Source of the DNA: Vicinamibacterales bacterium
Lineage (GTDB): Bacteria > Acidobacteriota > Vicinamibacteria > Vicinamibacterales > CAVVIG01
Reading direction: 5' to 3'
DNA length: 56,699 bases
NCBI GenBank assembly: GCA_046596625.1
Contig: JBKJMH010000044.1
Span: forward strand, 1-56,699
Below are positions 10,765 to 41,767 of this stretch, one piece after another (positions within the stretch are counted from its first letter, which is position 1; each line of letters begins with the position of its first letter). The notes beneath the pieces are model-generated. The model was given only the letters and a program-made list of their open reading frames with translations. It searched no databases and was not told the DNA's origin. The position numbers and the translations under genes were made by a program.

Positions 10765-12042
10765 TCAGGCGTGCGCCTGACGCGCCTTGCGCCCGATGTC
10801 GGTGCGGTACTGCATGCCGTCGAAGCTGATGACGCGAACGCCAGCATAGGCGTCGGCGATCGCCTCGGGAAAGTCGGCGCCGCTGGCCACCACAGTGAGA
10901 ACCCGGCCACCCGCCGTGACGATGGCTCCGTCGCTTGCGGCCGTGCCCGCGTGGCAAACCATCACGCCGAGGCGCTCCGCGTCGTCGATACCGGCGATGG
11001 CACGGCCGGACTCCGACGAGTCGGGATAACCGCGAGACGCCAGTACCACACCGACCATCGACTCGGTCGTCATCTCGCACGACTCCTGAGTCAGTCGCCC
11101 TTCGGCCGCTGCAGCGAACAGAGGCGCGAGCGGTTCCGCGATGCGGGGCAGGATGACCTGCGCTTCGGGATCGCCGAGCCGGACGTTGAACTCGATGACC
11201 TTCGGACCCGCCGAGGTCAGCATCAGCCCGACGTAGAGGAAGCCCTTGAAGGGATGTCCCTCCGCCGTCATACCCGCCACGACCGGCGAGACGATCTCGC
11301 GCATGACGCGGGCATGAAGTTCGGCGTCGATCAGGGGGCTCGGCGCGAACGCGCCCATTCCGCCGGTATTCGGTCCCTCGTCGTTGTCGAAGATGCGTTT
11401 GTGGTCCTGGGCGGTGCCAATGGGCAGCGCCCGCTCCCCATCGCACAGCACGAAGAAGGACACTTCGGGCCCGACTAGGCACTCCTCTATAACCAGGCGT
11501 TCTCCCGCGCGCCCGAAGCGACCGCCAGTCATCGAGGCAACGATGGCGTCTTCCGCCTCGGCCAGCGTCTGGGCAACGACCACGCCCTTGCCGGCAGCCA
11601 GCCCATCTGCCTTGAGCACGACAGGGAACCCAAACGAACCGCTCCGAACCACCGCGAGGGCATCGTCGGCCGAATCGGCGGTGTGGAACCTTGCAGTCGG
11701 GACACCATGCCGCTCCATGAAGGCCTTCGCAAAGGCCTTGCTGGTTTCGAGACGTGCCGCCGCAGCGGTGGGTCCGAGCAGCACCCGCCCGTCGGCGGCG
11801 AAGCGGTCGGCCACGCCGACGCTGAGCGGAAGTTCAGGACCGACAACCGTCAGGTCGACTTTCTCGCGGACCGCAAGCGCGGCGATACTGTCAGGACTGC
11901 CGAGGTCGACTGTGTAGATGGGTGAGATTTGGGCAATACCCGGATTTCCCGGTGCGCAGATCACCGAGACACCGGGATCGGAGGCTAGGCGCGCGACGAG
12001 TGCGTGCTCACGCCCTCCACTGCCAAGTACGAGAACTCTCAT
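10765..12042 (-). CDS. purD: Phosphoribosylamine-glycine ligase
   Basis: MRVLVLGSGGREHALVARL...GNPG...ATP-grasp...GPNTGGMGA... Confidence 0.9.
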   Translation of the reverse strand: MRVLVLGSGGREHALVARLASDPGVSVICAPGNPGIAQISPIYTVDLGSPDSIAALAVREKVDLTVVGPELPLSVGVADRFAADGRVLLGPTAAAARLETSKAFAKAFMERHGVPTARFHTADSADDALAVVRSGSFGFPVVLKADGLAAGKGVVVAQTLAEAEDAIVASMTGGRFGRAGERLVIEECLVGPEVSFFVLCDGERALPIGTAQDHKRIFDNDEGPNTGGMGAFAPSPLIDAELHARVMREIVSPVVAGMTAEGHPFKGFLYVGLMLTSAGPKVIEFNVRLGDPEAQVILPRIAEPLAPLFAAAAEGRLTQESCEMTTESMVGVVLASRGYPDSSESGRAIAGIDDAERLGVMVCHAGTAASDGAIVTAGGRVLTVVASGADFPEAIADAYAGVRVISFDGMQYRTDIGRKARQAHA

Positions 12043-12108
12043 TTTTTCAGCGATTTGCGCCGGACAGGTCCGTGGCACTTCGACGGAACGTCCGCGGGGA
12101 GTATTTCG

Positions 12109-12137
12109 TTGACGCGGTCAGGGTTTGGCCCTAGAAT
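12109..12137 (+). promoter_or_regulatory. Sigma70-type promoter candidate for rpsU (TTGACG-17 nt-TAGAAT)
   Basis: TTGACG at 12109-12114, exactly 17 nt of spacer, TAGAAT at 12132-12137. It lies about 95 nt upstream of the rpsU start. Confidence 0.5.
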
Positions 12138-12230
12138 CCGCCGTTGCCGTGATAGCCTAGCATATTTGGTTGTAGCGGCTATTCAACGTGATAACCGTGA
12201 TTTGAGCCACCCGAAAGAGGGGTGATTTTC

Positions 12231-12428
12231 GTGGCAGAAGTGAAGATTCAGGAGGGCGAGTCTATCGAGAGCGCTCTTCGACGCTTCAAGCGGAAGGTGC
12301 AGCAGGAAGACATCATCAAGGATATCAAGAAGCACTCCTTCTACCTGAAGCCGGGCGACAAGCGTCGCGCCAAGCAGGCGCTGGCCCGCAAGCGTAATCG
12401 GAAGAAGCTCCGACGAGAAACGGAGTAG
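12231..12428 (+). CDS. rpsU: 30S ribosomal protein S21
   Basis: (V)AEVKIQEGESIESALRRFKRKVQQEDIIKDIKKHSFYLKPGDKRR. GTG at 12231 is preceded by AAGAGGGG. The track ORF starts 9 nt earlier. Confidence 0.9.
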   Translation: MAEVKIQEGESIESALRRFKRKVQQEDIIKDIKKHSFYLKPGDKRRAKQALARKRNRKKLRRETE

Positions 12429-12452
12429 ACCGACCTAGACGAGGTGGGACCG

Positions 12453-12761
12453 ATGGAGTTCCAGGACAGGACCCTCACGTGCGTGGACTGCGGTGCGGCA
12501 TTCGTCTGGACGGCCGGAGAGCAACAGTTCTTCGCCGACAAGAACTTCACGAACGAACCGAAGCGCTGCAAGTCCTGTAAGACGACGAGGGCAAGCCGCC
12601 CGGCCAGCGCAGTCGTTGCGCGGGAACGGGTGGAAACGGTCACCAACTGTTCGGCGTGTGGCAGGGAAACGACCGTGCCGTTCCGTCCGACCCAGGGTCG
12701 ACCGGTGTTCTGTAAGGACTGCTTCCAATCCCGCAAAGTTGCGGGTGCCGGCAGCATCTGA
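12453..12761 (+). CDS. CxxC-x17-CxxC zinc-ribbon protein (two copies of the module)
   Basis: CVDCG...CKSCK and CSACG...CKDCF pairs. GAGGTG lies 6 nt before the ATG at 12453. Confidence 0.65.
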   Translation: MEFQDRTLTCVDCGAAFVWTAGEQQFFADKNFTNEPKRCKSCKTTRASRPASAVVARERVETVTNCSACGRETTVPFRPTQGRPVFCKDCFQSRKVAGAGSI

Positions 12762-12875
12762 CTGCGTCGGTTCCACGTCGTTGATTGAGACAGACGTGCC
12801 CCTGCGTGCAGCCCGAGGGCTGTGGTGCGCAGGGTGTGTTAAGCTCACGAGCACGCACACATCTGGAGCGTTTTC

Positions 12876-13226
12876 ATGCAGATCGAAGAACGAACGGTTG
12901 GCGACGTCCTCATCCTCGATGTGAAAGGTCGCATCACTCTGGGTGAAGGGGATGAGATCCTCAAGGACAAGGTGAACAGCCTTCTCAACCAGGGACAGAA
13001 GAAGATCGTCCTCAACCTGGCCGAAGTGCCGTACATCGACAGCGCCGGCCTCGGCGAGATTGTGCGGACCTATACCACCGTGAGCCGGCAGGGTGGCAGC
13101 CTCAAGCTGCTCAGCCTGACCAAGCGCATCTCGGATCTGCTCGCGATTACGAAGCTGCTGACCGTCTTCGAGACATTCGATTCGGAGAACGAAGCGGTCC
13201 AGAGCTTCTCGTCGGCGAAGGTCTAG
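12876..13226 (+). CDS. STAS-domain protein (anti-sigma-factor antagonist, SpoIIAA-like)
   Basis: VLILDVKGRI...LNLAEVPYIDSAGLGEIV...LLSL...I.DLL.ITKL..VF is the classic STAS layout, with the conserved Ser in DSAG. Confidence 0.8.
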   Translation: MQIEERTVGDVLILDVKGRITLGEGDEILKDKVNSLLNQGQKKIVLNLAEVPYIDSAGLGEIVRTYTTVSRQGGSLKLLSLTKRISDLLAITKLLTVFETFDSENEAVQSFSSAKV

Positions 13227-13243: not shown

Positions 13244-14206
13244 ATGGCGCGCAGCACCCTTTCGAGTATGACGGTTCCCGATGTTCCTGCCGGCCCCCGG
13301 TTCGGGACATCGGGTAGCCGCTCTCCGGCGCTCAGTCTGGTCCTTTCCCTTCGGCCAGGCCAGTGGACCAAGAATCTGCTGGTCTTCGCGCCGTTGCTCT
13401 TCGCTGTCAAACTGTTCGACCTTCAGTCCGTCGCACGCGCGACCGGCGGCTTTGCCGTGTTCTGCGCGCTCTCGAGCGTCGTCTATCTCGTCAACGACGT
13501 CATGGATCGAGAAGGCGATCGGCTGCACCCGCAGAAGCGGACGCGGCCGATTGCGGCGGGTGACCTCTCGGTCAGCACGGCGCTGCTCACCGCTGTCCTG
13601 CTTGCAGTCACGGCCCTTGCCTGCGCTGGCCTGATGGGTTGGCGCTTCGCGGCCGTGGCCGCGTCCTACCTCGCGCTCCAGACGCTCTACTCGGTCGCCC
13701 TGAAACACATCGTCATCATCGACGCCCTGACGCTGGCTATCGGCTTCGTGCTGCGCGCGATTGCCGGCGCCGTGGTCATCGACGTCGTGATCAGCCACTG
13801 GCTGTTCGTCTGTACCATCCTGCTTGCGCTGTTCATTGCCCTGGCGAAGCGTCGGCATGAACTGGTGCTGCTCGCGGACGGAGCCGCGAGCCATCGTCCG
13901 ATTCTCGACGAGTATTCCGCCTATCTCCTCGATCAGATGATCGCCGTCGTCACGGCGTCGACGCTGGTTGCCTACATTTTCTATACGATTAGCCCGGAGA
14001 CCGAGCAGAAGTTCGGCACGTCGTGGTTGGGCCTCACGATTCCATTTCCGCTCTATGGAATCTTCCGCTACCTGTATCTCGTGCATCGGCGCGAGGGTGG
14101 CGGCAGCCCGTCAGACCTGTTGCTGAACGACCGTCCCCTGCTTGCCTGCGTGACCTTATGGGTCATCGCGGTGGTGCTGATCGTCTACCACCCGTTTGTG
14201 CCCTGA
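13244..14206 (+). CDS. UbiA-family prenyltransferase resembling decaprenyl-phosphate phosphoribosyltransferase
   Basis: RPGQWTKNLLVFAPLLFA, NDVMDREGDRLHPQKRTRPIAAG (the UbiA Asp-rich motif in the DPPR-synthase flavour), and about 8 hydrophobic segments. Confidence 0.65.
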   Translation: MARSTLSSMTVPDVPAGPRFGTSGSRSPALSLVLSLRPGQWTKNLLVFAPLLFAVKLFDLQSVARATGGFAVFCALSSVVYLVNDVMDREGDRLHPQKRTRPIAAGDLSVSTALLTAVLLAVTALACAGLMGWRFAAVAASYLALQTLYSVALKHIVIIDALTLAIGFVLRAIAGAVVIDVVISHWLFVCTILLALFIALAKRRHELVLLADGAASHRPILDEYSAYLLDQMIAVVTASTLVAYIFYTISPETEQKFGTSWLGLTIPFPLYGIFRYLYLVHRREGGGSPSDLLLNDRPLLACVTLWVIAVVLIVYHPFVP

Positions 14207-14208
14207 CC

Positions 14209-15447
14209 ATGCCTGATTTCAACGTACGTTCCGATGCGGTCAACGTCGAGCAGATCATGGAGCAGATCCGCTCGCGCATCCGCGAGAAGCGCGGGGCCGA
14301 TTACACCGAGGCCCAGATCCAGGAACTGGCGAGCGTCAAGCTCGAGAAGTTCCTCGATCCGCGCGGTGTCCGCTCCGATCTGCTCGAACAGTTCCGCCGA
14401 GCCCAGCCGCCCTATGGGCCGCCGGAACTCCCCAACTTCGCCTTCGAGGACCAGACTCTCTTCGAGTCGACCCGTGGCCCGCTGCGTTTCATGCGCAAGC
14501 TGCTGCAGCCGATCCTGAAGCTGTTCTTCAACCCCAATCCCCTCATCCAGGCGCTCAACATCCAGTCGAAGCTGAATGCGGGCGCGGCCGAGCGCGAGGC
14601 CAAGCGCGACGCGGCTCGCTACGCCTTCGACCAGCTGCACTACGAGGTGATGCACAACCTTGTGCTCGAGACCACGCGGCTCGGCATCGAGGTGAAGAAC
14701 CTGAAGATGCGGCTGGAATCGCTAGCCAGCCGCCTCGAGTTCAACGAGCGGCGGGCTCGCGCGCTCGAGAGCGTCGTCGCCTACACGCCGGCGGACGAGG
14801 GCAAGCCCGAGGGTCGTCGGGACGAAACGCGTCGTGAGGAGGCCCGTCGCGACGAGCCACGCCGCGAAGAGGGGCGCCGCGACGACAGCCGCCGACAGGA
14901 ACGCCAGGAGCGCCGCAGCGCCGAACCGAACAGACCGGCATCCCCGCCGCCGGCGCCACCTGCACCGCCAGCCGTGCCAGCACCAGCCATCACCGAGACG
15001 CCTGACGCACCCCAGCCGCCAGCGGCAGACACGCCGGACACGGCGGCGCAGTCTGGTGTCCCAGCAGAGGGACCCGGACAGCGGAGCCGCCGCCGGCGAC
15101 GCCGCCGCGGACGTCGCGGCAGCGGCTCTGCCGCAGCCATCATGGCTGGCGGACAGTCGGCGGACCCGGCCTCAGACGGAGAAGGCGGGCCCGAGGACGA
15201 GGGTGGACCTGACGCCGAGATGGAGGAGTCGACGCCAGACTTGGCTGCAGAGTCTGACGCCGACGGACGCACGGCACGGCCCGAACCGTTCGAGCACGCC
15301 TTCGGCGCGCAGGCCCATCCAGCCGAAGAGGCTGCCAGCGACCCATCGGCCCGGCAGGCGGCACCGCCTGCTCCGGTCGGTCCACCGAGCGAACCGTCCG
15401 AGCCGGAGCAGCCGCAAGCCGACCCAGCGGCGACGCCAGAACAGTGA
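14209..15447 (+). CDS. Hypothetical protein with a structured coiled-coil N-terminal half and a roughly 210-aa low-complexity R/E/P/A-rich tail
   Basis: The ATG at 14209 is in frame with track ORF 14023..15447 and lies just after the UbiA stop. The N-terminus is MPDFNVRSDAVNVEQIMEQIRSRIREKR... The tail has RRDETRREEARRDEPRREEGRRDDSRRQERQERR, PPAPPAPPAVPAP and [13 protein letters not shown]. Confidence 0.6.
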   Translation: MPDFNVRSDAVNVEQIMEQIRSRIREKRGADYTEAQIQELASVKLEKFLDPRGVRSDLLEQFRRAQPPYGPPELPNFAFEDQTLFESTRGPLRFMRKLLQPILKLFFNPNPLIQALNIQSKLNAGAAEREAKRDAARYAFDQLHYEVMHNLVLETTRLGIEVKNLKMRLESLASRLEFNERRARALESVVAYTPADEGKPEGRRDETRREEARRDEPRREEGRRDDSRRQERQERRSAEPNRPASPPPAPPAPPAVPAPAITETPDAPQPPAADTPDTAAQSGVPAEGPGQRSRRRRRRRGRRGSGSAAAIMAGGQSADPASDGEGGPEDEGGPDAEMEESTPDLAAESDADGRTARPEPFEHAFGAQAHPAEEAASDPSARQAAPPAPVGPPSEPSEPEQPQADPAATPEQ

Positions 15448-28794: not shown

Positions 28795-30084
28795 ATGCCC
28801 GCGTTGCTCGACGACAGCCTGGTCATCGTCCTCGCCGGCGGCGCCGGCGAACGACTCTCGCCGCTCACGAAACATCGCGCAAAACCGGCTGTGTACTTCG
28901 GCGGACCGTATCGCATCATCGACTTCTCGCTCAGCAACTGCATCAACTCCGGGCTTCGCCGCATCTACATCGCGACGCAGTACAAGTCGTTGTCGCTGAA
29001 TCGTCATATCCGCATGGGCTGGAACGTGGTCTCGGAGGAACTCGGCGAGTTCATCGAGATCCTGCCGCCCCAGAAGCGCGTCGGTGAACACTGGTACCAG
29101 GGCACGGCGGACGCGGTCTACCAGAACCTCTACTCGATCATTCGCGAGAACCCGCGCTACGTCATCGTGCTGTCTGGCGACCACGTCTACAAGATGGACT
29201 ACTCGCGCATGCTCCGGTTCCATCAGGAGAGCGGCGCGGCCGCGACGCTGGCCGCCATCGAAGTGCCACTGCACGAAGCCACGGAGTTCGGCGTCGTCGC
29301 CATCGATGATCAGGAACGGATCACCGGCTTCCAGGAGAAGCCGAAGCAGCCGATCCCGATTCCGGGCTCGCCCGACGTGGCGCTGGCCTCGATGGGCGTC
29401 TACATCTTCGACACCGACGCGCTGGTGAAGGCCCTCGAGGAAGACGCGGTCCAGCCGACCAAGCACGACTTCGGCAAGGACATCATTCCGGCTCTCATCC
29501 ACAAGGCACCGGTCTACGCCTATCGTTTCTACGACGAGAACAAGAAGGCCTCGAAGTACTGGCGCGACGTCGGCACGCTCGACGCGTATTTCGAAGCGAA
29601 CATGGACCTCTGCCAGGTCAACCCGGAATTCAACCTCTACGATCCGGAATGGCCGCTGCGCACCTACCAGCCGCAAGCGCCGCCGGCGAAGTTCGTCTTC
29701 GCCGAGACCGGCCATCGCTGCGGCCAGGCACTGGACTCCATCGTCTCGCCCGGCTGTATCGTGTCCGGCAGCAGTATCTACGGCAGCGTGCTCTGCCCGA
29801 ATGTGCGGGTCCACAGCTTCAGCCATATCGAACAGTCGATCCTGATGCCGGGCGTCCGCGTCGGGCGGCACGCCCGCATCCGTCGCGCCATCATCGACCG
29901 CGACCTGCTTATTCCGCGGGGCGCGGTCATCGGCTACAACCTCGAAGAAGATCGGCGGCGGCACACCGTGACCGAGGGCGGTGTGGTGGTCGTCACCGCC
30001 GACGACGAACCGTTCATTGCGCCGCTCAGCGACGAGGCCTTGCGTTATGAGGCCGAAGCGGACCGGCGTGGCGCAGGAGTCTGA
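28795..30084 (+). CDS. glgC: Glucose-1-phosphate adenylyltransferase
   Basis: [42 protein letters not shown]...WYQGTADAV...[16 protein letters not shown] lies upstream. Confidence 0.9.
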
Positions 30085-30086
30085 CT

Positions 30087-31385
30087 GTGAAAATCACCCG
30101 AGTGCACGGCCGCGAGATCCTGGACTCACGCGGCAATCCGACCGTGGAAGTGGATGTCACCCTCGACGGGGGCGCGATGGGACGCGCAGCCGTTCCTTCA
30201 GGCGCCTCGACCGGTGAGCGCGAAGCGCTCGAACTGCGGGACGGCGACAAGGCGCGCTACCTCGGCAAGGGCGTCCGCCATGCGGTTGCGAACGTCAACG
30301 GCGAAATCGCCGCCGCGCTCGTCGGCCAGTCGTTCGATCAGCGCACGCTCGACGCCGCGATGATTGCGCTCGACGGCACGCCGACCAAGGCGCGCCTCGG
30401 GGCCAACGCCCTGCTCGGCGTCTCCATGGCCGCGCTGCGGGCCGAGGCGCTGTCCGGTGGGCGTGCGCTCTACACGCACATCGGCGCCCTGTACGGCACC
30501 AGCCGCTACACGCTGCCGGTGCCGATGATGAACATCCTGAACGGCGGCGCCCACGCGGACTCGAGCGTCGACTTCCAGGAATTCATGGTCATGCCGGTGG
30601 GCGCGTCGTCGTTCGCCGAAGCGCTCCGCACCGGCGCGGAAATCTTCCATGCCCTGCGCGGCATCCTGAAGGGGCGCGGCCAGTCGACCGGCGTCGGCGA
30701 CGAGGGCGGCTTCGCGCCGAACCTGAAGTCGAACCGCGAAGCGGTGGAGGTGGTGCTCGAAGCGATCGGGAAGGCCGGCCTGAAAGCCGGCCAAGACGTC
30801 TTCATCGCGCTCGACGTCGCGTCGAGCGAACTCTGGGCCGGCGGCGGACGCTACGTCTTCAAGAAGTCGAGCGAGCCCGAGCGCACGTCTGAACAGATGG
30901 TCGAGCTCTACGCCGACTGGATCCGGCAGTACCCGATCATCTCGATCGAGGACGGCATCGCCGAAGGCGACTGGACCGGTTGGCAGCAGTTGACGGAGGC
31001 CATCGGCGACAAGGTGCAACTGGTGGGCGACGACGTCTTCGTCACGAACCCGGAGATTCTCAAGCGCGGCATCGCGGACAAGGTGGCCAACGGCCTGCTG
31101 GTGAAGCTGAATCAGATCGGCACCGTCACCGAAACGCTCGATGCCGTGCGCATGGCCGCAGATGCCAACTACGCCACGATCATGTCGCACCGATCGGGCG
31201 AAACCGAGGATGCGACCATCGCTGACATGGCCGTGGGCACGGCCGCCGGCCAGATCAAGACCGGTTCGGCGAGCCGCACCGATCGCACCTGCAAGTACAA
31301 CCAGTTGCTGCGCATCGAAGAAGAACTCGGGTCGGCAGCGGTGTATGCCGGCCGTGGCGCCATCCGGGCTCTGGCTGGCCGCTGA
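30087..31385 (+). CDS. eno: Enolase
   Basis: (V)[23 protein letters not shown]...[15 protein letters not shown]...[11 protein letters not shown]...GQIKTGS. Confidence 0.95.
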
Positions 31386-31417
31386 CAGTTCGGAGGTCTG
31401 CGTTTCATCGAGGTGCT

Positions 31418-32164
31418 ATGTACAAGCTTGTGCTGCTCCGCCACGGCGAAAGCACGTGGAACAAGGAAAACCGCTTCACCGGCTGGACCGATGTCGACCT
31501 CTCGGACAAGGGCCGCGAGGAAGCGGCTGAAGCCGGCCGCCTGTTGCAGGCTGGCGGCTACGTGTTCGATCAGGCCTATGTCTCGTTGCTGAAGCGCGCC
31601 ATCCGCACGTTGTGGATCACACTCGACCAGCTCGATCAGATGTGGCTGCCGGTCGAGAAGAGCTGGCGCCTCAACGAACGTCATTACGGCGCCCTGCAGG
31701 GGCTGAACAAGGCGGAGACCGCGGCCCTGCACGGCGACGCGCAGGTGCTGGTGTGGCGGCGCAGCTACGACATCCCGCCGCCGCCGCTCACGCTCGATGA
31801 CGAACGCCATCCGGCGAAGGACCCGCGTTACGCCGGCCTCGACGCGGCGGACCTGCCGCTGACCGAGTCGCTGAAGGAAACGGTCGCACGGTTCCTGCCC
31901 TACTGGCACGGCACCATCGCGCCGGCCATCACCAGCGGCAAGCGCGTGATCGTTGCGGCGCACGGCAACAGCCTGCGTGCCCTGGTGAAGTACCTCGACG
32001 ACGTCTCGGAGTCGAAGATCGTCGAGCTCAACATTCCGACCGGTATCCCGCTGGTGTACGAACTGGACGCCGACCTGAAGCCGATTCGCCATTACTACCT
32101 CGGTGACGCGGCCGCGGCCGCCGCCGCCGCGGAACGCGTCAAGCAACAGGCGGCCTCCCGCTGA
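31418..32164 (+). CDS. gpmA: 2,3-bisphosphoglycerate-dependent phosphoglycerate mutase
   Basis: [29 protein letters not shown]...[12 protein letters not shown]...[10 protein letters not shown]. Confidence 0.95.
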
Positions 32165-32170
32165 ACGGTT

Positions 32171-32193
32171 CGCGCGGACGCCACGTCCGCGCG
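32171..32193 (+). terminator. Perfect 10-bp GC hairpin after gpmA with no U-tract (possible terminator or attenuator)
   Basis: CGCGCGGACG-cca-CGTCCGCGCG is read directly from the sequence. It lies 7 nt after the gpmA stop and 31 nt before the channel-gene ATG. No T-run follows. Confidence 0.4.
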
Positions 32194-32224
32194 GCGCAGC
32201 CTTCCCTCGAGGACTCGCTGCTCG

Positions 32225-33949
32225 ATGCGGTCATATATCGTCTACGTGCTCGGGATCGTCGCGCTGGTCATCCTGACGAGCGCGACCGGCTTCTACGCGG
32301 CTGAAATCGGCACGAACCAGAATCTCGACAGCTACGGCGATGCCCTGTGGTGGGCGATCGTCACCGTCACCACAATCGGCTATGGCGACATCTTCCCCGT
32401 TACCGTGGCGGGACGGTTCGTCGGCGCCTTCCTGATGTTCGCCGGCATCGGTGCGCTCGGCGTGTTCACGGCGTCCATCGCCGCCTACCTCATCAAGTTC
32501 GATCGGCTCGATGCCCTGCGCGTCAGGGGTATGCATCGCCACGTGGTGATCTGCGGCCTCGGCTCGACCGGTGCGCTGCTGACGCAAGCCTTCCAGCGCG
32601 ATGGCTACACGGTGCTGGCGATCGAGAAAGCCGAGGACAACCCGCGCCTCGACGCGGCTCGCGAGGCGGGGGCGGTCGTGCTGATTGGCGATGCCTCGCG
32701 GACGGAGGTCCTGCAACGGGCCCGAGTCGATAGGGCCGCGCACATCGTGATCGTCGCCGGCGCCGATGCGACGAACGTGGAGATTGCGGCGGCAGCGCGT
32801 GCCCTGGTGCACGACTCGGCGGCCAGCGTCTCGTGCGCGGCGCAGATCGAAGACCCTGAACTGTGGTACGCCCTGCGCAGCTGGGACGTCGGCACCCAGG
32901 ACCGCGTGAGGCTCGAGTTCTTCAACGTGACCGAGCTCGGTGCCCGCGCGCTGCTTGCGCGCCATTCGCCCTTCGCGGGAGTCGCCGACGCCGCTGCCGC
33001 CCCACCTCGCGTGCTCATCGTCGGCTCCGGCGCGCTCGGCCAGCACCTGATCGGGCACATGGTGCGGCAGTGGCAGGACGTCGAAGGCGAGACCAAGGCG
33101 CCCCTGCCGATCGCGCTGGTCGATGCTGACGTCGACCGCGTGACCCAGGACCTGCATCATCGCCACCCCGAGTTGCGCACACTCGCCGTAATCACCCCGT
33201 ATGCCCTGGATCTGCGTTCGACCACATTCCAGCGCGGCGCGTTCCTGTTCGACGACACCGGCCTCTGCGCGGTCACGCATGCATATGTCTGCGTCGAGGA
33301 CGAAGGGCTGGCCCTCTCCACGGCGCTGCTGCTGCTGAATCATCTCCGCCAGTACGGCGTGCACGTGATGGTGCGAACGAACCGCGAGGCCGGCCTGGCG
33401 GCGCTGCTGCGCGCGGTCGGCACCCAGGGTTCACGCGGCGTCTCCCACCTGCACGTGTTCAGCCTGCTCGAGCAGGCCTGCCGCCCGGAGTTCGTGCTTC
33501 GTGGCACCAATGAAGTGCTCGCGCGGGCGCTGCACCAGGACTACCTGTCACAGGCATCCCGCCATCAGAATCCGTCGGCTGTTCCGTGGGATGATTTGCC
33601 CGTCGACCTCAAGGAGTCGAATCGACGACAGGCCGATCACATCGCGACCAAGCTCGAAGCGGTGAGGTGCCACATCGTGCCGCTCACCGCGCTCGAAGGC
33701 GATGCCTTTGCGTTCGCTCCAGCCGAAGTGGAGCACCTGGCCGAGATGGAACACGAACGCTGGGTGGCGGAGCGCCGCGCGCAGGGCTGGACGCGCGGCC
33801 CTCGTGATCCGATACAGAAGACCAACCCCAGTCTGGTCTCCTGGGCCGAACTCGATGAGCCGGCTCGCGAGATGAACAGGGGTTCCGTGCGTCGACTGCC
33901 GTTCTTCCTGAATCGCGCGGGCTTCACCGCACACCGTGACAACGCATGA
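32225..33949 (+). CDS. 2TM K+ channel fused to an RCK/TrkA-N domain, a second Rossmann-like domain and tandem C-terminal RyR-like repeats
   Basis: Pore TVTTIGYGD (nt 32360-32386) is flanked by two TM helices. The RCK domain has VVICGLGSTGALL...IGDAS. The second glycine-rich loop is VLIVGSGALGQHL. The C-terminus has LARALHQDY...PWDDLPVDLKESNRRQADHI and VEHLAEMEHERWVAERRAQGWTRGPRD..KTNPSLVSWAELDEPAREMNR, matching the RyR-domain pattern E.LAe..HE.W....GW.yG......P.LvpW.eL. Confidence 0.75.
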   Translation: MRSYIVYVLGIVALVILTSATGFYAAEIGTNQNLDSYGDALWWAIVTVTTIGYGDIFPVTVAGRFVGAFLMFAGIGALGVFTASIAAYLIKFDRLDALRVRGMHRHVVICGLGSTGALLTQAFQRDGYTVLAIEKAEDNPRLDAAREAGAVVLIGDASRTEVLQRARVDRAAHIVIVAGADATNVEIAAAARALVHDSAASVSCAAQIEDPELWYALRSWDVGTQDRVRLEFFNVTELGARALLARHSPFAGVADAAAAPPRVLIVGSGALGQHLIGHMVRQWQDVEGETKAPLPIALVDADVDRVTQDLHHRHPELRTLAVITPYALDLRSTTFQRGAFLFDDTGLCAVTHAYVCVEDEGLALSTALLLLNHLRQYGVHVMVRTNREAGLAALLRAVGTQGSRGVSHLHVFSLLEQACRPEFVLRGTNEVLARALHQDYLSQASRHQNPSAVPWDDLPVDLKESNRRQADHIATKLEAVRCHIVPLTALEGDAFAFAPAEVEHLAEMEHERWVAERRAQGWTRGPRDPIQKTNPSLVSWAELDEPAREMNRGSVRRLPFFLNRAGFTAHRDNA

Positions 33950-35844
33950 GCAGCGAACACCCGTCTTCCCCACACCCGTCGCACCGGCATCGGCGACGCA
34001 GGCGCGTTCGACGGCCAGGCACTGGCCAGGCGCCTGGTCCGCTGCCGCTCGTGGTGGGCGTCACCGGTCACCGTGACCTTCGCCCCGAGGACCTGCCCGC
34101 ACTCGAAGGACTGGTGCGGCGCGTCATCAACGACGTGAAGGACGCGCACCCGCACACCCCGCTGTTGCTGCTATCGCCGCTCGCGGAAGGGAGCGACCGG
34201 CTGGTCGCTCGCGTCGCCCTCGAAGGTGGCGTGCGCCTGGTGGTACCGCTGCCGCTGCCGCTCGAACTGTACGAGCAGGACTTCGTCAGCGACGAGTCGC
34301 GTGCCGAGTTCCGCCGTCTGCTTGGCCTCGCCGAAAGTTCCTACGTGCTGCCGCTCATGCACGGCAACACCGACGAGGGCATCCGACAGTACGGTGACCA
34401 GCGGAACCGTCAGTACGCCCAGGTCGGCGCTCTCATCGCCAGGCAGAGTCAGGTGTTCCTCGCTCTCTGGGACGGCGCAAGCGATGCCGGCAACGACAAG
34501 GTCGGCGGAACCGCGGAAGTTGTCCGGTTCCGACTCGACGGGGTACCGCCAAGCTACGAGCCGACGTCGGCCAGCCCGCTCAGCGACTCGAGCAGCGGTT
34601 CGGTCTATCACCTGATCACGCCGCGCATCGGTCAGCCGCTGCCGCGGAAGGCGCTGACCTCGGAACTCGTGCTGCCCACTCGGCAGTCCGCCGCGTCGTT
34701 CGATGAACTTCAGGGGTGGATGGATCAGTTCAACGAAGATGCCTTACACTTCGACGCGTCGATGGCGCCGGCCCGCCTCACGAGCAAGTCGTATCTCCTG
34801 AACACCACGGAAGACGCGGTCGACGCGACAGCGCGCTCGCTGCCCGCCTCCGCACAGATGACCATGGAGCGTTACGCCGTGGCCGACGCCCTGGCGCTCC
34901 ATTTCGCCAGCCACGCCAGGGCTGCATCGAAGAAGCTCTTTCTCTGGGTGTTCGTGTCGGCGCTGTTCTTCAACCTGTTCCACTCGTTGCCGCACCCCCA
35001 CATTGCGGAACACCCGTCGCTCGGCGAGCGGCTCATCGCCGTTCCGTGGCTGCTGCTACTCTTCCTCGCATCGTCTATCGTCGCGAGCTACTGGATCCAT
35101 CGCGAGGCGACCGAGCAGGATTACCAGAACAAGCACCAGGACTATCGGGCACTGGCCGAAGCCCTGCGCATCCAGTTCTTCTGGCAGGTCGCCGGCGTGC
35201 AGGGTGATGTCGCCGACCATTACCTGCGGAAGCAGCGTGGCGCACTCGAGTGGATTCGCAACGCGCTCCGGGCCTGGGATGCCGAGTCGTCGGCGAGCGA
35301 GGCGCGCGAGGCGGTCGGTGGGTTCGTGCCGGACCGGCTGGCCTACGTCGCCAGGAACTGGGTCAGCGAGCAGCGCAACTACTTCGCCTCGAAGGCGCGC
35401 CGTGAACAGGCGACGCTCGAAGAGGAAGAGAAGAAGATCGAGTGGCTGGTGCGCATCAGCGTGGTGTTGGCCCTGCTCCTCGCAGTGGTGCTGACGGTCC
35501 CGCTCATCATTCCCATCCACGCGCTCGAAGGGGTGAAGCACTGGGTCGAAGAGCCGTGGACGCACGGCATCGTGATGATCGTCATCGTGACGCTGGCCGT
35601 GGTGGCCGGCCTGCGCCACGGCTACAACCAGCAGATGGCGCGCTCCGAGCATGCGAAGCAGTTCGGGCGCATGAGCGAGCTCTTCGATGCGGGGCAGACG
35701 CACCTGTCGGCGCAACTGGACGCCGGACACGTGGAACAGGCGGCGGCGCTGCTGCGCGAGCTGGGCCAGGAAGCGCTGGAGGAGAACGGTGACTGGGTGT
35801 TGCTGCACCGCGAGCGTCCGCTCGAAGTGCCGCACTCGGGCTGA
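33946..35844 (+). CDS. SLOG-like (LOG/YpsA/DprA-type Rossmannoid) N-terminal domain fused to two 2TM modules (SLATT-like)
   Basis: The ATG overlaps the channel-gene stop (ATGA). The N-terminal domain has VVGVTGHRDL, SPLAEGSDRLVA, VVPLPLP and KVGGTAEVV (compare the LOG-type GGxGTxxE). TM pairs lie at about aa 330-385 and 500-556. Each pair is preceded by an amphipathic Y..A......K/R helix (RYAVADALALHFASHARAASKK; RNYFASKARREQATLEEEEKK). Confidence 0.6.
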   Translation: MSSEHPSSPHPSHRHRRRRRVRRPGTGQAPGPLPLVVGVTGHRDLRPEDLPALEGLVRRVINDVKDAHPHTPLLLLSPLAEGSDRLVARVALEGGVRLVVPLPLPLELYEQDFVSDESRAEFRRLLGLAESSYVLPLMHGNTDEGIRQYGDQRNRQYAQVGALIARQSQVFLALWDGASDAGNDKVGGTAEVVRFRLDGVPPSYEPTSASPLSDSSSGSVYHLITPRIGQPLPRKALTSELVLPTRQSAASFDELQGWMDQFNEDALHFDASMAPARLTSKSYLLNTTEDAVDATARSLPASAQMTMERYAVADALALHFASHARAASKKLFLWVFVSALFFNLFHSLPHPHIAEHPSLGERLIAVPWLLLLFLASSIVASYWIHREATEQDYQNKHQDYRALAEALRIQFFWQVAGVQGDVADHYLRKQRGALEWIRNALRAWDAESSASEAREAVGGFVPDRLAYVARNWVSEQRNYFASKARREQATLEEEEKKIEWLVRISVVLALLLAVVLTVPLIIPIHALEGVKHWVEEPWTHGIVMIVIVTLAVVAGLRHGYNQQMARSEHAKQFGRMSELFDAGQTHLSAQLDAGHVEQAAALLRELGQEALEENGDWVLLHRERPLEVPHSG

Positions 35845-35880: not shown

Positions 35881-37260
35881 CTAGGCCGACGGGGTCTGGG
35901 CCGCGGCCAGCCAGGCGGCCGTCACTTCCGACGCGGTCGAGAAGCGGGCGTTGGCGTCGGACAGGATGCAGCGCATGATCATCGCCGCAGCCTCGGCCCC
36001 GAGGTCGGGGCGCTCGGTGGCGACGTCGGACGGCTTGGTCATGAGCATGCGGCCGAGCAACTGCGGAAATGACTCCGCTGGATACGGCGGCCGGCCGGTG
36101 GCCATGTAGTACATCAGGGCGCCGATCGTGAACACGTCGGCACGCTGATCCGCCGGGTTGCCCATCAGCAGCTCCGGCGCCACGTACGACAGCTCGTGCG
36201 GTGCGGCCTGTCCACGCAGCGTGGCCTCGTTCATCGTCGACAGCAGATCCTGCATGCCGCCGATGCCCGCGCTCGAAATCGCGAGGCGCTCTTCCTTCGC
36301 TGGTTCCCGCACCACCCGGATGATCTCGGGGTGAAGCCCCGAGATGAAGCCGCCGTGCACGTGCACCGCCGCCGTCGCCTCGCTCAACTCGCGCACGAAC
36401 TGCGTCAGCGTCTTGATGGCCAGTCGTCCGTCCGAGCGGACGAGTTCGCCGAGGCTCACGCCAGCCAGCAGGTCGGTGACCACGTACATCATCTCCGCCG
36501 TCTCGCCGAAGTCGCGAACGTGGATGATGTTCGGGTGCATCACTTGCAGGGCGCGCGCCTCGCGCAGGAACCGCGCGCGAATGGCTTCCTTGTTGTCCTT
36601 CTCGGTCGGCCGGTAGACGCGGACCGCAACCGGGCTGCCGAGCATCCGATGCTCGCCGGCGTAGACGACGCTGCCAAATCGACCGATGGCGAGCACTTTC
36701 GTCAGGTCGTAGTTGCCCACGACCAGAGGCGATTCCCTGGACGGTTCGAGCAAGGCCGGCGGAGGTGCAGCCGCTGCGGGTACGGCCGCAGGGGCCACGA
36801 GAGCGAGAGCCGCGGGCGCGCCGCCGCCGTCGGGAATCAGGTCGCCGTCGGTGCCGGGCCGGCGCAGGTGTGCATTGACCCCCTGGACGAGACGCTCGAT
36901 GTGCTGGTCAATCGGCTGAGCAATGGCATCGAACCAGTGCTGCGAGCTGATGAAATACTCCATCGTGCGGGTCGGCATCACGTTCTCGATGCGGACCGGC
37001 ATGAGCGACAGACCCTTGTGGACGGCGCGCTCGACCTCGCGCTGGACCTGGACCGACTTGTTGGAGGCTTCGCTGAAGACCAGCAGCATGAGCCGCGAGC
37101 CTTCGATGCCGTCGATGATCGACTCGGCCCACGGCACGCCGGGCACGATGTCGCGTGGGGCAATCCAGCACGGAATACCGCGCTGCTCGAGCCCCGCGCA
37201 AATCGCGTTCGAGACAACCACGTCCTTCGACGCGTAACTGATGAAGACCACGTGCGCCAT
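35881..37260 (-). CDS. TIR domain fused through an Ala/Pro linker to a degenerate Ser/Thr-kinase-like (pseudokinase) domain
   Basis: The TIR domain has HVVFISYASKD...GIPCWIAPRD...LMLLVFSEASNKSVQVQREVERA (candidate catalytic Glu in REVE) and ...LMPVRI. The kinase fold has IGRFGSVVY, HPNIIHV, YVAPELL and DVFTIGALMYYMATGRPPY. Its catalytic motifs are altered: VAVR (K to R), ISGLHPEII in place of HRDLKPxNI, and SAG in place of DFG. The start is set at the ATG at 37258-37260 because the longer ORF would overlap the upstream terminator. Confidence 0.75.
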   Translation of the reverse strand: MAHVVFISYASKDVVVSNAICAGLEQRGIPCWIAPRDIVPGVPWAESIIDGIEGSRLMLLVFSEASNKSVQVQREVERAVHKGLSLMPVRIENVMPTRTMEYFISSQHWFDAIAQPIDQHIERLVQGVNAHLRRPGTDGDLIPDGGGAPAALALVAPAAVPAAAAPPPALLEPSRESPLVVGNYDLTKVLAIGRFGSVVYAGEHRMLGSPVAVRVYRPTEKDNKEAIRARFLREARALQVMHPNIIHVRDFGETAEMMYVVTDLLAGVSLGELVRSDGRLAIKTLTQFVRELSEATAAVHVHGGFISGLHPEIIRVVREPAKEERLAISSAGIGGMQDLLSTMNEATLRGQAAPHELSYVAPELLMGNPADQRADVFTIGALMYYMATGRPPYPAESFPQLLGRMLMTKPSDVATERPDLGAEAAAMIMRCILSDANARFSTASEVTAAWLAAAQTPSA

Positions 37261-37290
37261 GAGGAAAGCGCCCCGATCATATCGCATCGA

Positions 37291-37329
37291 AAACAAAAAA
37301 AAGGCCGCCGGGTTGAACCCGGCAGCCTT
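37291..37329 (-). terminator. Rho-independent terminator downstream of the AGE-STAS gene
   Basis: The minus strand reads AAGGCUGCCGGG-uucaa-CCCGGCGGCCUUUUUUUUGUUUU. This is a 10-bp stem with one mismatch followed by a U-run. Confidence 0.75.
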
Positions 37330-37356
37330 CTCTCGGTTCTTCTGCGAAGAACGCTG

Positions 37357-39625: not shown

Positions 39626-41767
<2,142 letters not shown>

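Follow-up and report, generated by a model that had tools for sequence, protein, structure and literature searches.

What is a ryanodine receptor (RyR) domain doing at the end of a bacterial K+ channel, and which ligand might it read? The question is raised by a 574 amino acid (aa) gene product encoded in contig JBKJMH010000044.1 (GenBank assembly GCA_046596625.1), a stretch of 56,699 nucleotides (nt) from a Vicinamibacterales bacterium (Acidobacteriota) that is referred to below as the window. The channel gene is followed directly by a gene for a putative SLOG-type membrane protein and, on the opposite strand, by a gene for a TIR protein. This TIR gene and the linkage of TIR genes to the channel family at large, both absent from the initial annotation of the sequence, are the strongest clues to the class of ligand involved. 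We infer that the three genes form a TIR-signalling module of the Thoeris-like kind, with a K+ channel gated by nucleotides and a SLOG-SLATT membrane protein as its probable effectors, and assign this reading a probability of about 0.5. In the literature searched, no RCK K+ channel is described in combination with an R12 nucleotide clamp and TIR signalling.

A K+ channel with tandem RCK domains

The channel gene and its segments are listed here in order of position.

32225-33949, + strand: channel gene, 574 aa; two-transmembrane (2TM) K+ pore, RCK1, RCK2 and two RyR (R12-type) repeats
32363-32389, + strand: selectivity filter TVTTIGYGD, aa 47-55, by motif position
32531-32929, + strand: RCK1 (TrkA_N) Rossmann domain, aa ~103-235; GLGSTG and the β2 acidic residue E134
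32987-33499, + strand: RCK2-like Rossmann domain, aa ~255-425; GSGALG and D300
33503-33700, + strand: RyR-like repeat 1, aa ~427-492, divergent and shortened; H437, Y440, N449, N466
33716-33940, + strand: RyR repeat 2, aa ~498-572; H510, W513, R517, W522, R527, N534, N551

The open reading frame (ORF) coordinates given in the initial annotation are exact, and the canonical filter in a minimal 2TM pore and the RCK/TrkA-N domain that it placed behind the pore were both recovered. The filter lies between two hydrophobic helices (aa 2-27 and aa 61 to 90-101), with a pore helix at aa 37-49, as judged from the sequence and an AlphaFold2 (AF2) model, and Pfam Ion_trans_2 covers aa 12-90 (E 5e-17). 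TrkA_N sits directly after the inner helix and covers aa 107-211 (E 4e-18). At the sequence level, the pore and RCK1 align with aa 24-206 of MthK (E 2e-14). Searches of NCBIfam gave only Kch/TrkA matches, all of them sub-threshold. Relatives are publicly labelled "voltage-gated potassium channel Kch", but the "voltage-gated" part of this label is wrong, as the channel is without a voltage sensor.

A second GxGxxG domain had been recorded as an extra of the protein. The motif is real (GSGALG at aa 267, nt 33023), but the domain is not an oddity and corresponds to RCK2 of a tandem RCK pair. Pfam gives no match of its own to the RCK2-like domain. Internal duplication was assessed with family profiles constructed from 22 relatives and compared by hhalign, and the RCK2 profile matches the RCK1 profile at 87.6% (E 3.5e-6). 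The AF2 model, built on 65 relatives (pLDDT 85.6, pTM 0.75), has as its top Foldseek match in the PDB GsuK, which was crystallised with ADP and NAD (E ~2e-12, ~520 columns). The TrkA ring, Slo1 and MthK follow, and the matches to tandem-RCK folds (GsuK, TrkA and Slo1) span 400-700 columns. The match between the two RCK profiles and the matches to tandem-RCK structures thus identify the "extra" Rossmann domain as the second RCK of a GsuK/Slo/TrkA-type pair.

Sequence and model together predict that the gene encodes a subunit of an RCK-gated 2TM K+ channel with a C-terminus composed of RyR repeats. With two RCKs per subunit, as in GsuK, a predicted assembly of four subunits would carry a gating ring of eight RCK domains. 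Both RCK domains retain an intact dinucleotide-binding signature and look competent to bind a dinucleotide, because G111/G113/G116 with the acidic residue at position 134, and G267 with D300, are conserved.

The RyR repeats form a predicted nucleotide clamp

Two C-terminal RyR copies had also been proposed, and in domain searches both do score as RyR, the second above the Pfam cut-off and the first at the profile level only. Repeat 2 matches Pfam RyR over aa 502-567 (E 7e-13; 49.1 bits against a gathering cut-off of 27.4) and the R12 domains of RyR1/RyR3 in the PDB (phmmer, E 1e-16). Scanned alone, repeat 1 is below threshold (E 0.11, 13.2 bits), and its profile matches that of repeat 2 at 98.4% (hhalign, E 5e-15). 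Taken as a pair, the repeats superpose on human RyR3 Repeat1-2 (6uhe, residues 848-1055) over 193 columns (Foldseek, TM-score 0.56, E 7e-7). The pair is accordingly modelled as sharing its fold with RY12/Repeat1-2, the clamp that binds nucleotides in animal ryanodine receptors.

The view that the function of bacterial RyR domains is unknown, expressed in the initial annotation, has been superseded by reports of phage RyR proteins that bind or hydrolyse 2'- and 3'-cyclic ADP-ribose (2'cADPR and 3'cADPR) (PMC13232231; 10.64898/2026.06.04.730250). The protein RyDEP (gp78 of mycobacteriophage DyoEdafos), reported in May 2026, is a single-repeat RyR-domain homodimer with H75 and D117 as its catalytic dyad; adenine is held by stacking with W78, H100 touches the phosphates, and other phage homologues bind without cleavage (PMC13232231). 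RyR Tad (gp68 of Pectobacterium phage CB1) binds 3'cADPR with a dissociation constant of 43 nM, as well as 2'cADPR and canonical cADPR, and contacts its ligand via H129/W132, K147/H154 and K170/D171 (10.64898/2026.06.04.730250). The RY12 domain of RyR1 is an ADP sensor, in which W882 and W996 stack on ligands and R886, R897, H904, R1000, W1005 and R1020 line the pocket (PMC13642953).

The channel repeats were aligned to CB1 gp68 and to Baudelaire gp81, a RyDEP orthologue that served as a stand-in for DyoEdafos gp78, occupies the same position in the NARP1 operon and has H75, W78, H100 and D117 at identical numbers. The equivalent positions are as follows.

RyDEP H75: H510 in repeat 2, H437 in repeat 1
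RyDEP W78: W513 in repeat 2, Y440 in repeat 1
RyDEP H100: N534 in repeat 2, N449 in repeat 1
RyDEP D117: N551 in repeat 2, N466 in repeat 1

The His-x-x-Trp of the ligand pocket, the counterpart of RyDEP H75/W78 and RyR1 W882/W996, is present in repeat 2 (H510/W513) and takes the form His-x-x-Tyr in repeat 1 (H437/Y440). Repeat 2 also retains R517 (W+4), W522 and R527, which correspond to RyR1 R886/R1000, W1005 and R897. The residue pattern H,W,N,N is that of RyR1 repeat 2, and phage proteins that bind cADPR have H,W,H,D instead. The RyDEP dyad of His75 and Asp117 is incomplete in the channel, where the Asp position is taken by N551 and N466, and the repeats are therefore predicted to bind a ligand rather than cleave it. 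A role for the channel as a RyDEP-type cADPR glycosidase was considered and is unlikely, given the Asn at this position in both repeats. The RyR pair would most simply be a non-hydrolytic clamp for an adenine nucleotide or a derivative of ADP-ribose.

Breadth and conservation of the channel family

A word-indexed search identified 93 relatives of the channel (loci and relatives are cited below by L and P numbers), ~55 with the full architecture and ~30 with TrkA_N and RyR but no called pore. Those with a named source belong chiefly to Vicinamibacterales (Acidobacteriota), and others are from Devosiaceae, Brocadiaceae and Abditibacteriaceae. An exhaustive HMMER search with aa 235-574, the stretch of the channel that is specific to the family, found 900 representatives (of clusters at 50% identity) at E <= 1e-30 and 3,849 at E <= 1e-10. 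Only 1 of 117 new full-length representatives has the K+ filter, and the K+ clade that includes the window channel is thus a minority of the family. In most members the place of the filter is taken by a conserved LQLF(T/V)LESG (P0056-P0083, P0334-P0477; loci L109-L175), and their membrane region shows homology to that of the K+ pore (hhalign 86%, E 5e-6). This motif resembles TLESW, the filter of bacterial Na+ channels. The filter-less members may differ in ion selectivity, and may possibly even be catalytic. One distant relative (P0084) has four RyR repeats rather than two.

Among the 65 aligned relatives, the filter T[VIL]GYGD is kept in 42. The RCK1 glycines G111/G113/G116 are essentially invariant, position 134 is E or D in 63, and in RCK2 G267 is present in all 65 and D300 in 58. 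In the RyR pocket, H437 and H510 are present in 65/65 and Y440 and W513 in 63/65. Retention of the filter in 42 of 65, together with the near-invariance of the Rossmann glycines and of the RyR His and Trp residues, argues that these are not chance features. At the position of RyDEP D117, Asn is found in repeat 1 of 64 of all 65 aligned sequences and in repeat 2 of 41 of the 42 K+-clade members. In the filter-less clade, this position is Asp in 19 of 23.

A predicted SLOG-4TM partner adjoins the channel gene

The two further genes of the module are located downstream of the channel gene.

33946-35844, + strand: partner gene, 632 aa; N-terminal SLOG domain (aa ~30-245) and a four-transmembrane (4TM), SLATT-like region
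35881-37296, - strand: TIR-pseudokinase gene; TIR domain aa 13-150, kinase-like domain aa ~187-467; convergent with the partner gene

The channel had been described as co-translated with a SLOG protein, and this is supported both by the start of the partner gene, which overlaps the channel stop codon (ATGA, 33946), and by SLOG similarity at the family and fold levels. The partner protein alone has no significant Pfam match. Its family comprises 1,448 matches, and YAcAr, a SLOG family, is matched by 20 of 46 relatives (best E 5.5e-5; E 0.03 for the window partner alone). DUF4231 (27/46) and SLATT_3 (8/46) are matched under the Pfam cut-offs in every case (E 0.009-0.03 for the window partner). 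Four TM segments are present. The AF2 model (pLDDT 89, pTM 0.87) matches YpsA (2nx2; Foldseek, E 3.5e-5, TM-score 0.64), then ShosA and DprA. A search of the PDB with the partner-family profile gave no meaningful match, and the SLOG assignment consequently draws on the fold and on the family-wide Pfam matches. On these grounds the partner is predicted to be a SLOG protein with a SLATT-like 4TM region. Its first ~26 residues (nt 33946-34030) are rich in His and Arg, weakly conserved and modelled at pLDDT < 50. The putative start that overlaps the channel gene is the earliest possible one, and a later start was picked by the gene caller on another contig (L176).

The arrangement of channel and partner is conserved. 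The partner gene lies directly downstream on the same strand in L081 (77% identity), L082/83 (60%, also with a 4-nt overlap), L084 (46%), and L090 and L001 (46-51%), and the genes upstream of the channel differ among these loci. Adjacency persists in different flanking contexts down to a channel identity of 43-48%. Divergently upstream of the filter-less gene in L086/87 is a separate SLOG gene of 188 aa, with homology to the N-terminus of the partner. Distant partner homologues that occur without a channel (L089, L091) directly follow a TIR gene of the same subfamily as that in the window, in operons of the order TIR→SLOG-4TM.

TIR genes are linked to the channel family

The frequency of TIR genes near family members was surveyed with an alignment of the RyR region only, which was searched against a metagenome collection and gave 80 loci in 56 clusters at >=80% identity. 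Clusters with at least 900 nt of downstream flank were counted as informative (n = 47), and all ORFs were searched with three hidden Markov models (HMMs), one of the TIR subfamily and one for each half of the partner (SLOG and SLATT). The control consisted of 79 generic K+-channel loci (994 kb, against 519 kb of test DNA) from a scan of the genome collection with a full-length alignment. As a search for relatives that scan had been set aside, because it matched the generic pore motif of ordinary K+ channels and found a sole true orthologue, L001.

A TIR gene is present in 14 of the 47 informative clusters and in none of the control loci (Fisher p = 2.5e-7), and none of the three HMMs has a match anywhere in the 994 kb of control DNA. 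A positional test, which is independent of composition, gave a similar picture: 12 of the 14 TIR genes are within 700 nt of the 3' end of the module, against 2.8 expected under uniform placement, and 12 was not reached in any of 200,000 simulations. In L110 (41-8062), two consecutive pairs, each an RCK-RyR membrane gene followed by a TIR gene, occupy one strand; the second TIR protein there has a TM segment and a β-propeller-like region. TIR proteins adjoining family genes carry TM and tetratricopeptide (TPR) regions, TM and β-propeller regions, WD40 or STAND regions, as would be expected of sensor-TIR proteins.

Two loci of a distant K+-clade branch, L084 (1041-8008) and L090 (1999-14926), have a neighbourhood richer in conflict-system genes than the window: genes for Bestrophin-like, TIR_2+DUF8082 and Tll0287/HAMP proteins precede the module, and a caspase (Peptidase_C14) and a TIR-STAND protein follow it. 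In L085 (6886-8004), the gene for a separate RyR-domain protein of 372 aa shares 4 nt with the start of a filter-less RCK-RyR gene, and a TIR-WD40 gene is 6.5 kb away.

The TIR protein of the window has a kinase-like domain

The TIR-pseudokinase gene ends 36 nt from the stop codon of the partner gene and predicts a protein with Pfam TIR_2 (1.6e-21) and Pkinase (9.5e-22) matches. In the kinase-like domain, Arg replaces the VAIK Lys, and ISGLHPEI and SAG stand in for the HRD loop and DFG. These losses, which include the DFG Asp, mark the domain as a pseudokinase. The Glu of "QREVE" in the TIR domain aligns with the S.W..E motif of the TIR of a TIR-STING protein and is the predicted catalytic Glu, which the TIRs that neighbour the module in other loci retain. 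The TIR domain is 45-58% identical to TIRs that adjoin the module elsewhere, and the C-terminal parts vary.

Because relatives begin MAHDVF, the true start of the protein is probably M13 (nt 37260). A strong intrinsic terminator (37296-37334, - strand; 18-bp stem and T-run) that closes a 742-aa epimerase/STAS gene is located at the annotated TIR start, and the TIR gene therefore needs its own promoter unless the terminator leaks. In the long-read contig of L081, the orthologue of this gene (11726-13200) and the next gene (13254-15223) are each split over several frames, for which indel errors are a likelier cause than pseudogenisation.

Relationship to known systems

GsuK of Geobacter sulfurreducens (PDB 4GX0/4GX1/4GX2) shares with the channel a 2TM K+ pore and two RCKs per subunit, its Rossmann site binds ADP/NAD+, and both ADP and NAD+ activate it (PMC3510474). 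However, the channel is only 13-18% identical to GsuK, which lacks RyR repeats and is not known to have SLOG or TIR genes beside it. MthK and Kch-type RCK channels are alike in the pore and RCK1, but MthK has one RCK per chain and no RyR domain.

The same tandem clamp is found on a tetrameric cation channel in RyR RY12 (PF02026; PDB 5C30, 6UHE; PMC13642953), and the equivalents of RyR1 H/W882, R886/R1000, W1005 and R897 are conserved in the channel. The clamp of the channel is attached to a minimal K+ pore, whereas that of RyR belongs to a Ca2+ release channel of 5000 aa, and repeat 1 of the channel is shortened by a loop deletion and has Tyr instead of Trp. The oomycete PKDRR channels (PMC4820453) are likewise cation channels with a C-terminal tandem RyR outside the RyR family proper, but are eukaryotic and have a 6TM TRP-type pore without RCK domains, and their genomic setting gives no clue to function. 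The phage proteins RyDEP and RyR Tad have the Pfam family and the His-x-x-Trp contacts in common with the channel and are tied to TIR/cADPR signalling. They are small, soluble, single-repeat homodimers, whereas the channel has two fused repeats on a host channel, with Asn at the RyDEP positions of the catalytic Asp and the phosphate-binding His.

Among validated Thoeris systems, type VII pairs TIR with SLATT and uses canonical cADPR as the signal, and type X pairs TIR with an "ion channel" (10.64898/2025.12.03.692087). With these types and with the "SLOG and 4TM" candidates of the same study, the window shares a TIR beside membrane effectors, the SLOG and 4TM layout and the concept of a channel as effector. 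It differs in that its TIR is of the TIR_2 type and fused to sensor-like domains rather than ThsB-type, and in being a three-gene module outside any defence island. On paper the module resembles a Thoeris-type system, but it does not qualify as one. Membership of the "4TM SLOG" candidate class is not established, the two published TIRs of that class being only 29-32% identical to the TIR subfamily of the window. The Bacillus type X effector (the ThsK ion channel, 229 aa) was also examined as a possible relative, and it has no Pfam match and no BLASTP similarity to the channel. In the part of the supplements of 10.64898/2025.12.03.692087 that was available, RyR, TrkA and Ion_trans_2 occur as chance letter matches only.

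Proposed mechanism and alternative explanations

In the proposed module, a TIR-derived nucleotide, or the NAD+/ADP status of the cell, would gate the K+ pore via the RyR clamp, the RCK ring or both. The pseudokinase would act as the sensor or scaffold of the TIR protein, which once triggered would consume NAD+ and release a signal derived from ADP-ribose. This signal would be read by the SLOG domain of the partner, and also by the RyR clamp and/or the RCK Rossmann sites of the channel. Binding would open the K+ pore while the partner permeabilises the membrane, and the resulting loss of K+ and membrane potential would stop growth, as abortive infection or dormancy. A narrower form of the proposal, that the host RY12-type RyR domain is itself the receptor for a TIR-made signal derived from ADP-ribose (cADPR or one of its isomers) and gates the channel to which it is attached without an intermediary, is tentative, and we are inclined to doubt it more than to accept it.

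Several observations count against a TIR-signalling module. The window is ordinary chromosome, with a two-component system, a TonB receptor and glgC-eno-gpmA upstream and epimerase/STAS and isoamylase genes downstream, and is neither a defence island nor a mobile element. Neither the channel nor the partner has a match or a model in PADLOC. When the "SLOG and 4TM" candidates were published, they gave no protection in E. coli (10.64898/2025.12.03.692087). About 70% of family clusters have no TIR gene in the available flank, some K+-clade members have no partner (L088; L106/107), and the TIR gene of the K+ clade is convergent rather than co-operonic. Two of the three RyR Tad contact pairs differ, H154 being replaced by Asn and K170/D171 by Met-Asn or Ser-Asn, so that ADP/ATP, the type of ligand bound by RyR1, is a candidate here in place of a cADPR isomer.

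Several of these points would fit a housekeeping channel that reports metabolic state, in which the RCKs read NAD+/NADH/ADP, the RyR clamp reads ADP/ATP and K+ flux follows energy status; the TIR neighbours would then matter only by lowering NAD+, or would be unrelated. The gating of GsuK by ADP/NAD+, the selective binding of ADP by RyR1 RY12 and the H,W,N,N pattern that the repeats share with RyR1 repeat 2 in place of the phage H,W,H,D all speak for such a channel. So do the position of the gene after glgC-eno-gpmA in a housekeeping region, a layout kept in close relatives, and the existence of solo channels without partner or TIR. A metabolic channel leaves unexplained, however, the conserved and often overlapping SLOG-4TM partner, the positional enrichment of TIR genes and the tandem pairs of family gene and TIR gene, and the gpmA linkage vanishes beyond close relatives. 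We consider this explanation unlikely, though likelier than those that follow.

The repeats might instead not gate at all but, tethered to the membrane, buffer or end the TIR signal as a sponge or hydrolase and so set a threshold for the SLOG-SLATT partner. Phage RyR domains act in exactly this way, as sponge or glycosidase, and most filter-less members (19/23) have Asp at the equivalent of RyDEP D117. The Asn found there in the K+ clade (41/42 in repeat 2; 64/65 of all aligned in repeat 1) makes hydrolysis unlikely, and a mere sponge would have no use for the RCK ring and conserved K+ pore to which the repeats are fused; the explanation is improbable.

No better prospects attach to the older view of RyR repeats as interaction sites (PMC4820453), under which they would present a docking or regulatory surface to the partner or the TIR-pseudokinase and have no small-molecule ligand. 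It draws some support from the kinase-like domain encoded next door and from the translational coupling of a separate RyR-domain protein to the RCK-RyR gene in L085. However, the invariant residues are the His and aromatics of the ligand pocket, the neighbouring kinase is catalytically dead, and all three R12 domains studied experimentally bind adenine nucleotides.

That the channel, the SLOG-4TM protein and the TIR protein are independent neighbours, as the abundance of TIR genes in these soil lineages and the opposite strand of this one might suggest, is highly improbable and already disfavoured by the ATGA overlap, the partner adjacency conserved to 43-48% channel identity, the absence of TIR, SLOG and SLATT from all 79 control loci and the 12 of 14 adjacent TIR genes against 2.8 expected.

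The gpmA junction and chromosomal setting

The module is situated between glgC, eno and gpmA (28795-32164) and a glgX-like isoamylase gene (39629-41767). Close relatives keep this setting, which is not one in which a conflict system would usually be found. One further feature lies at its upstream edge.

32170-32194, + strand: GC-rich hairpin between gpmA (31418-32164) and the channel gene, by folding and conservation

A hairpin without a U-tract had been noted here, and it is a perfect GC stem of 11 bp, with a GAGGA Shine-Dalgarno motif on its 3' side. A simple terminator scan does not call it, and the 71-nt junction region folds no better than shuffled sequences (z = -0.74), so that its reality depends on conservation. 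In seven close relatives in which the channel is at least 72% identical (L081, L096, L097, L100, L101, L102 and L105), gpmA, the hairpin with compensatory changes and GAGGA are all kept. The linkage to gpmA is lost beyond these, and distant members have other upstream genes. Transcription may, as the initial annotation suggested, continue from gpmA into the channel gene. The hairpin could be a U-tract-less terminator, an attenuator or an element of mRNA stability.

Implications

As of 2026, binding of TIR-made cADPR signals by RyR (R12) domains has been demonstrated for counter-defence proteins of phages only. In the channel, this domain is joined to a canonical K+ pore and an NAD/ADP-type gating ring, with a SLOG-SLATT protein coupled to it and TIR genes linked to it statistically. 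The initial annotation regarded the gene pair as a tractable context for assigning a ligand to the RyR domain, a view that holds and is strengthened by the present analysis. If the proposed reading is true, nucleotide-gated ion channels with an RyR sensor would be a new class of TIR-signalling effector, the origin of the phage RyR sponges would be explained, and a function would be available for the TM-RCK-RCK-RyR family (~900 clusters at 50% identity), members of which are annotated "Kch" or "NAD-binding protein". A bacterial channel of 574 aa would also provide a tractable model, by binding, flux and cryo-electron microscopy, for the long-disputed direct action of cADPR on ryanodine receptors. 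Should the RyR domain itself prove to be the receptor, the path from a cADPR-type nucleotide via an RyR domain to cation flux would be an ancient prokaryotic signalling arc, from which the phage anti-Thoeris RyR sponges would have been copied as decoys and the animal ryanodine receptor would have inherited its domain.

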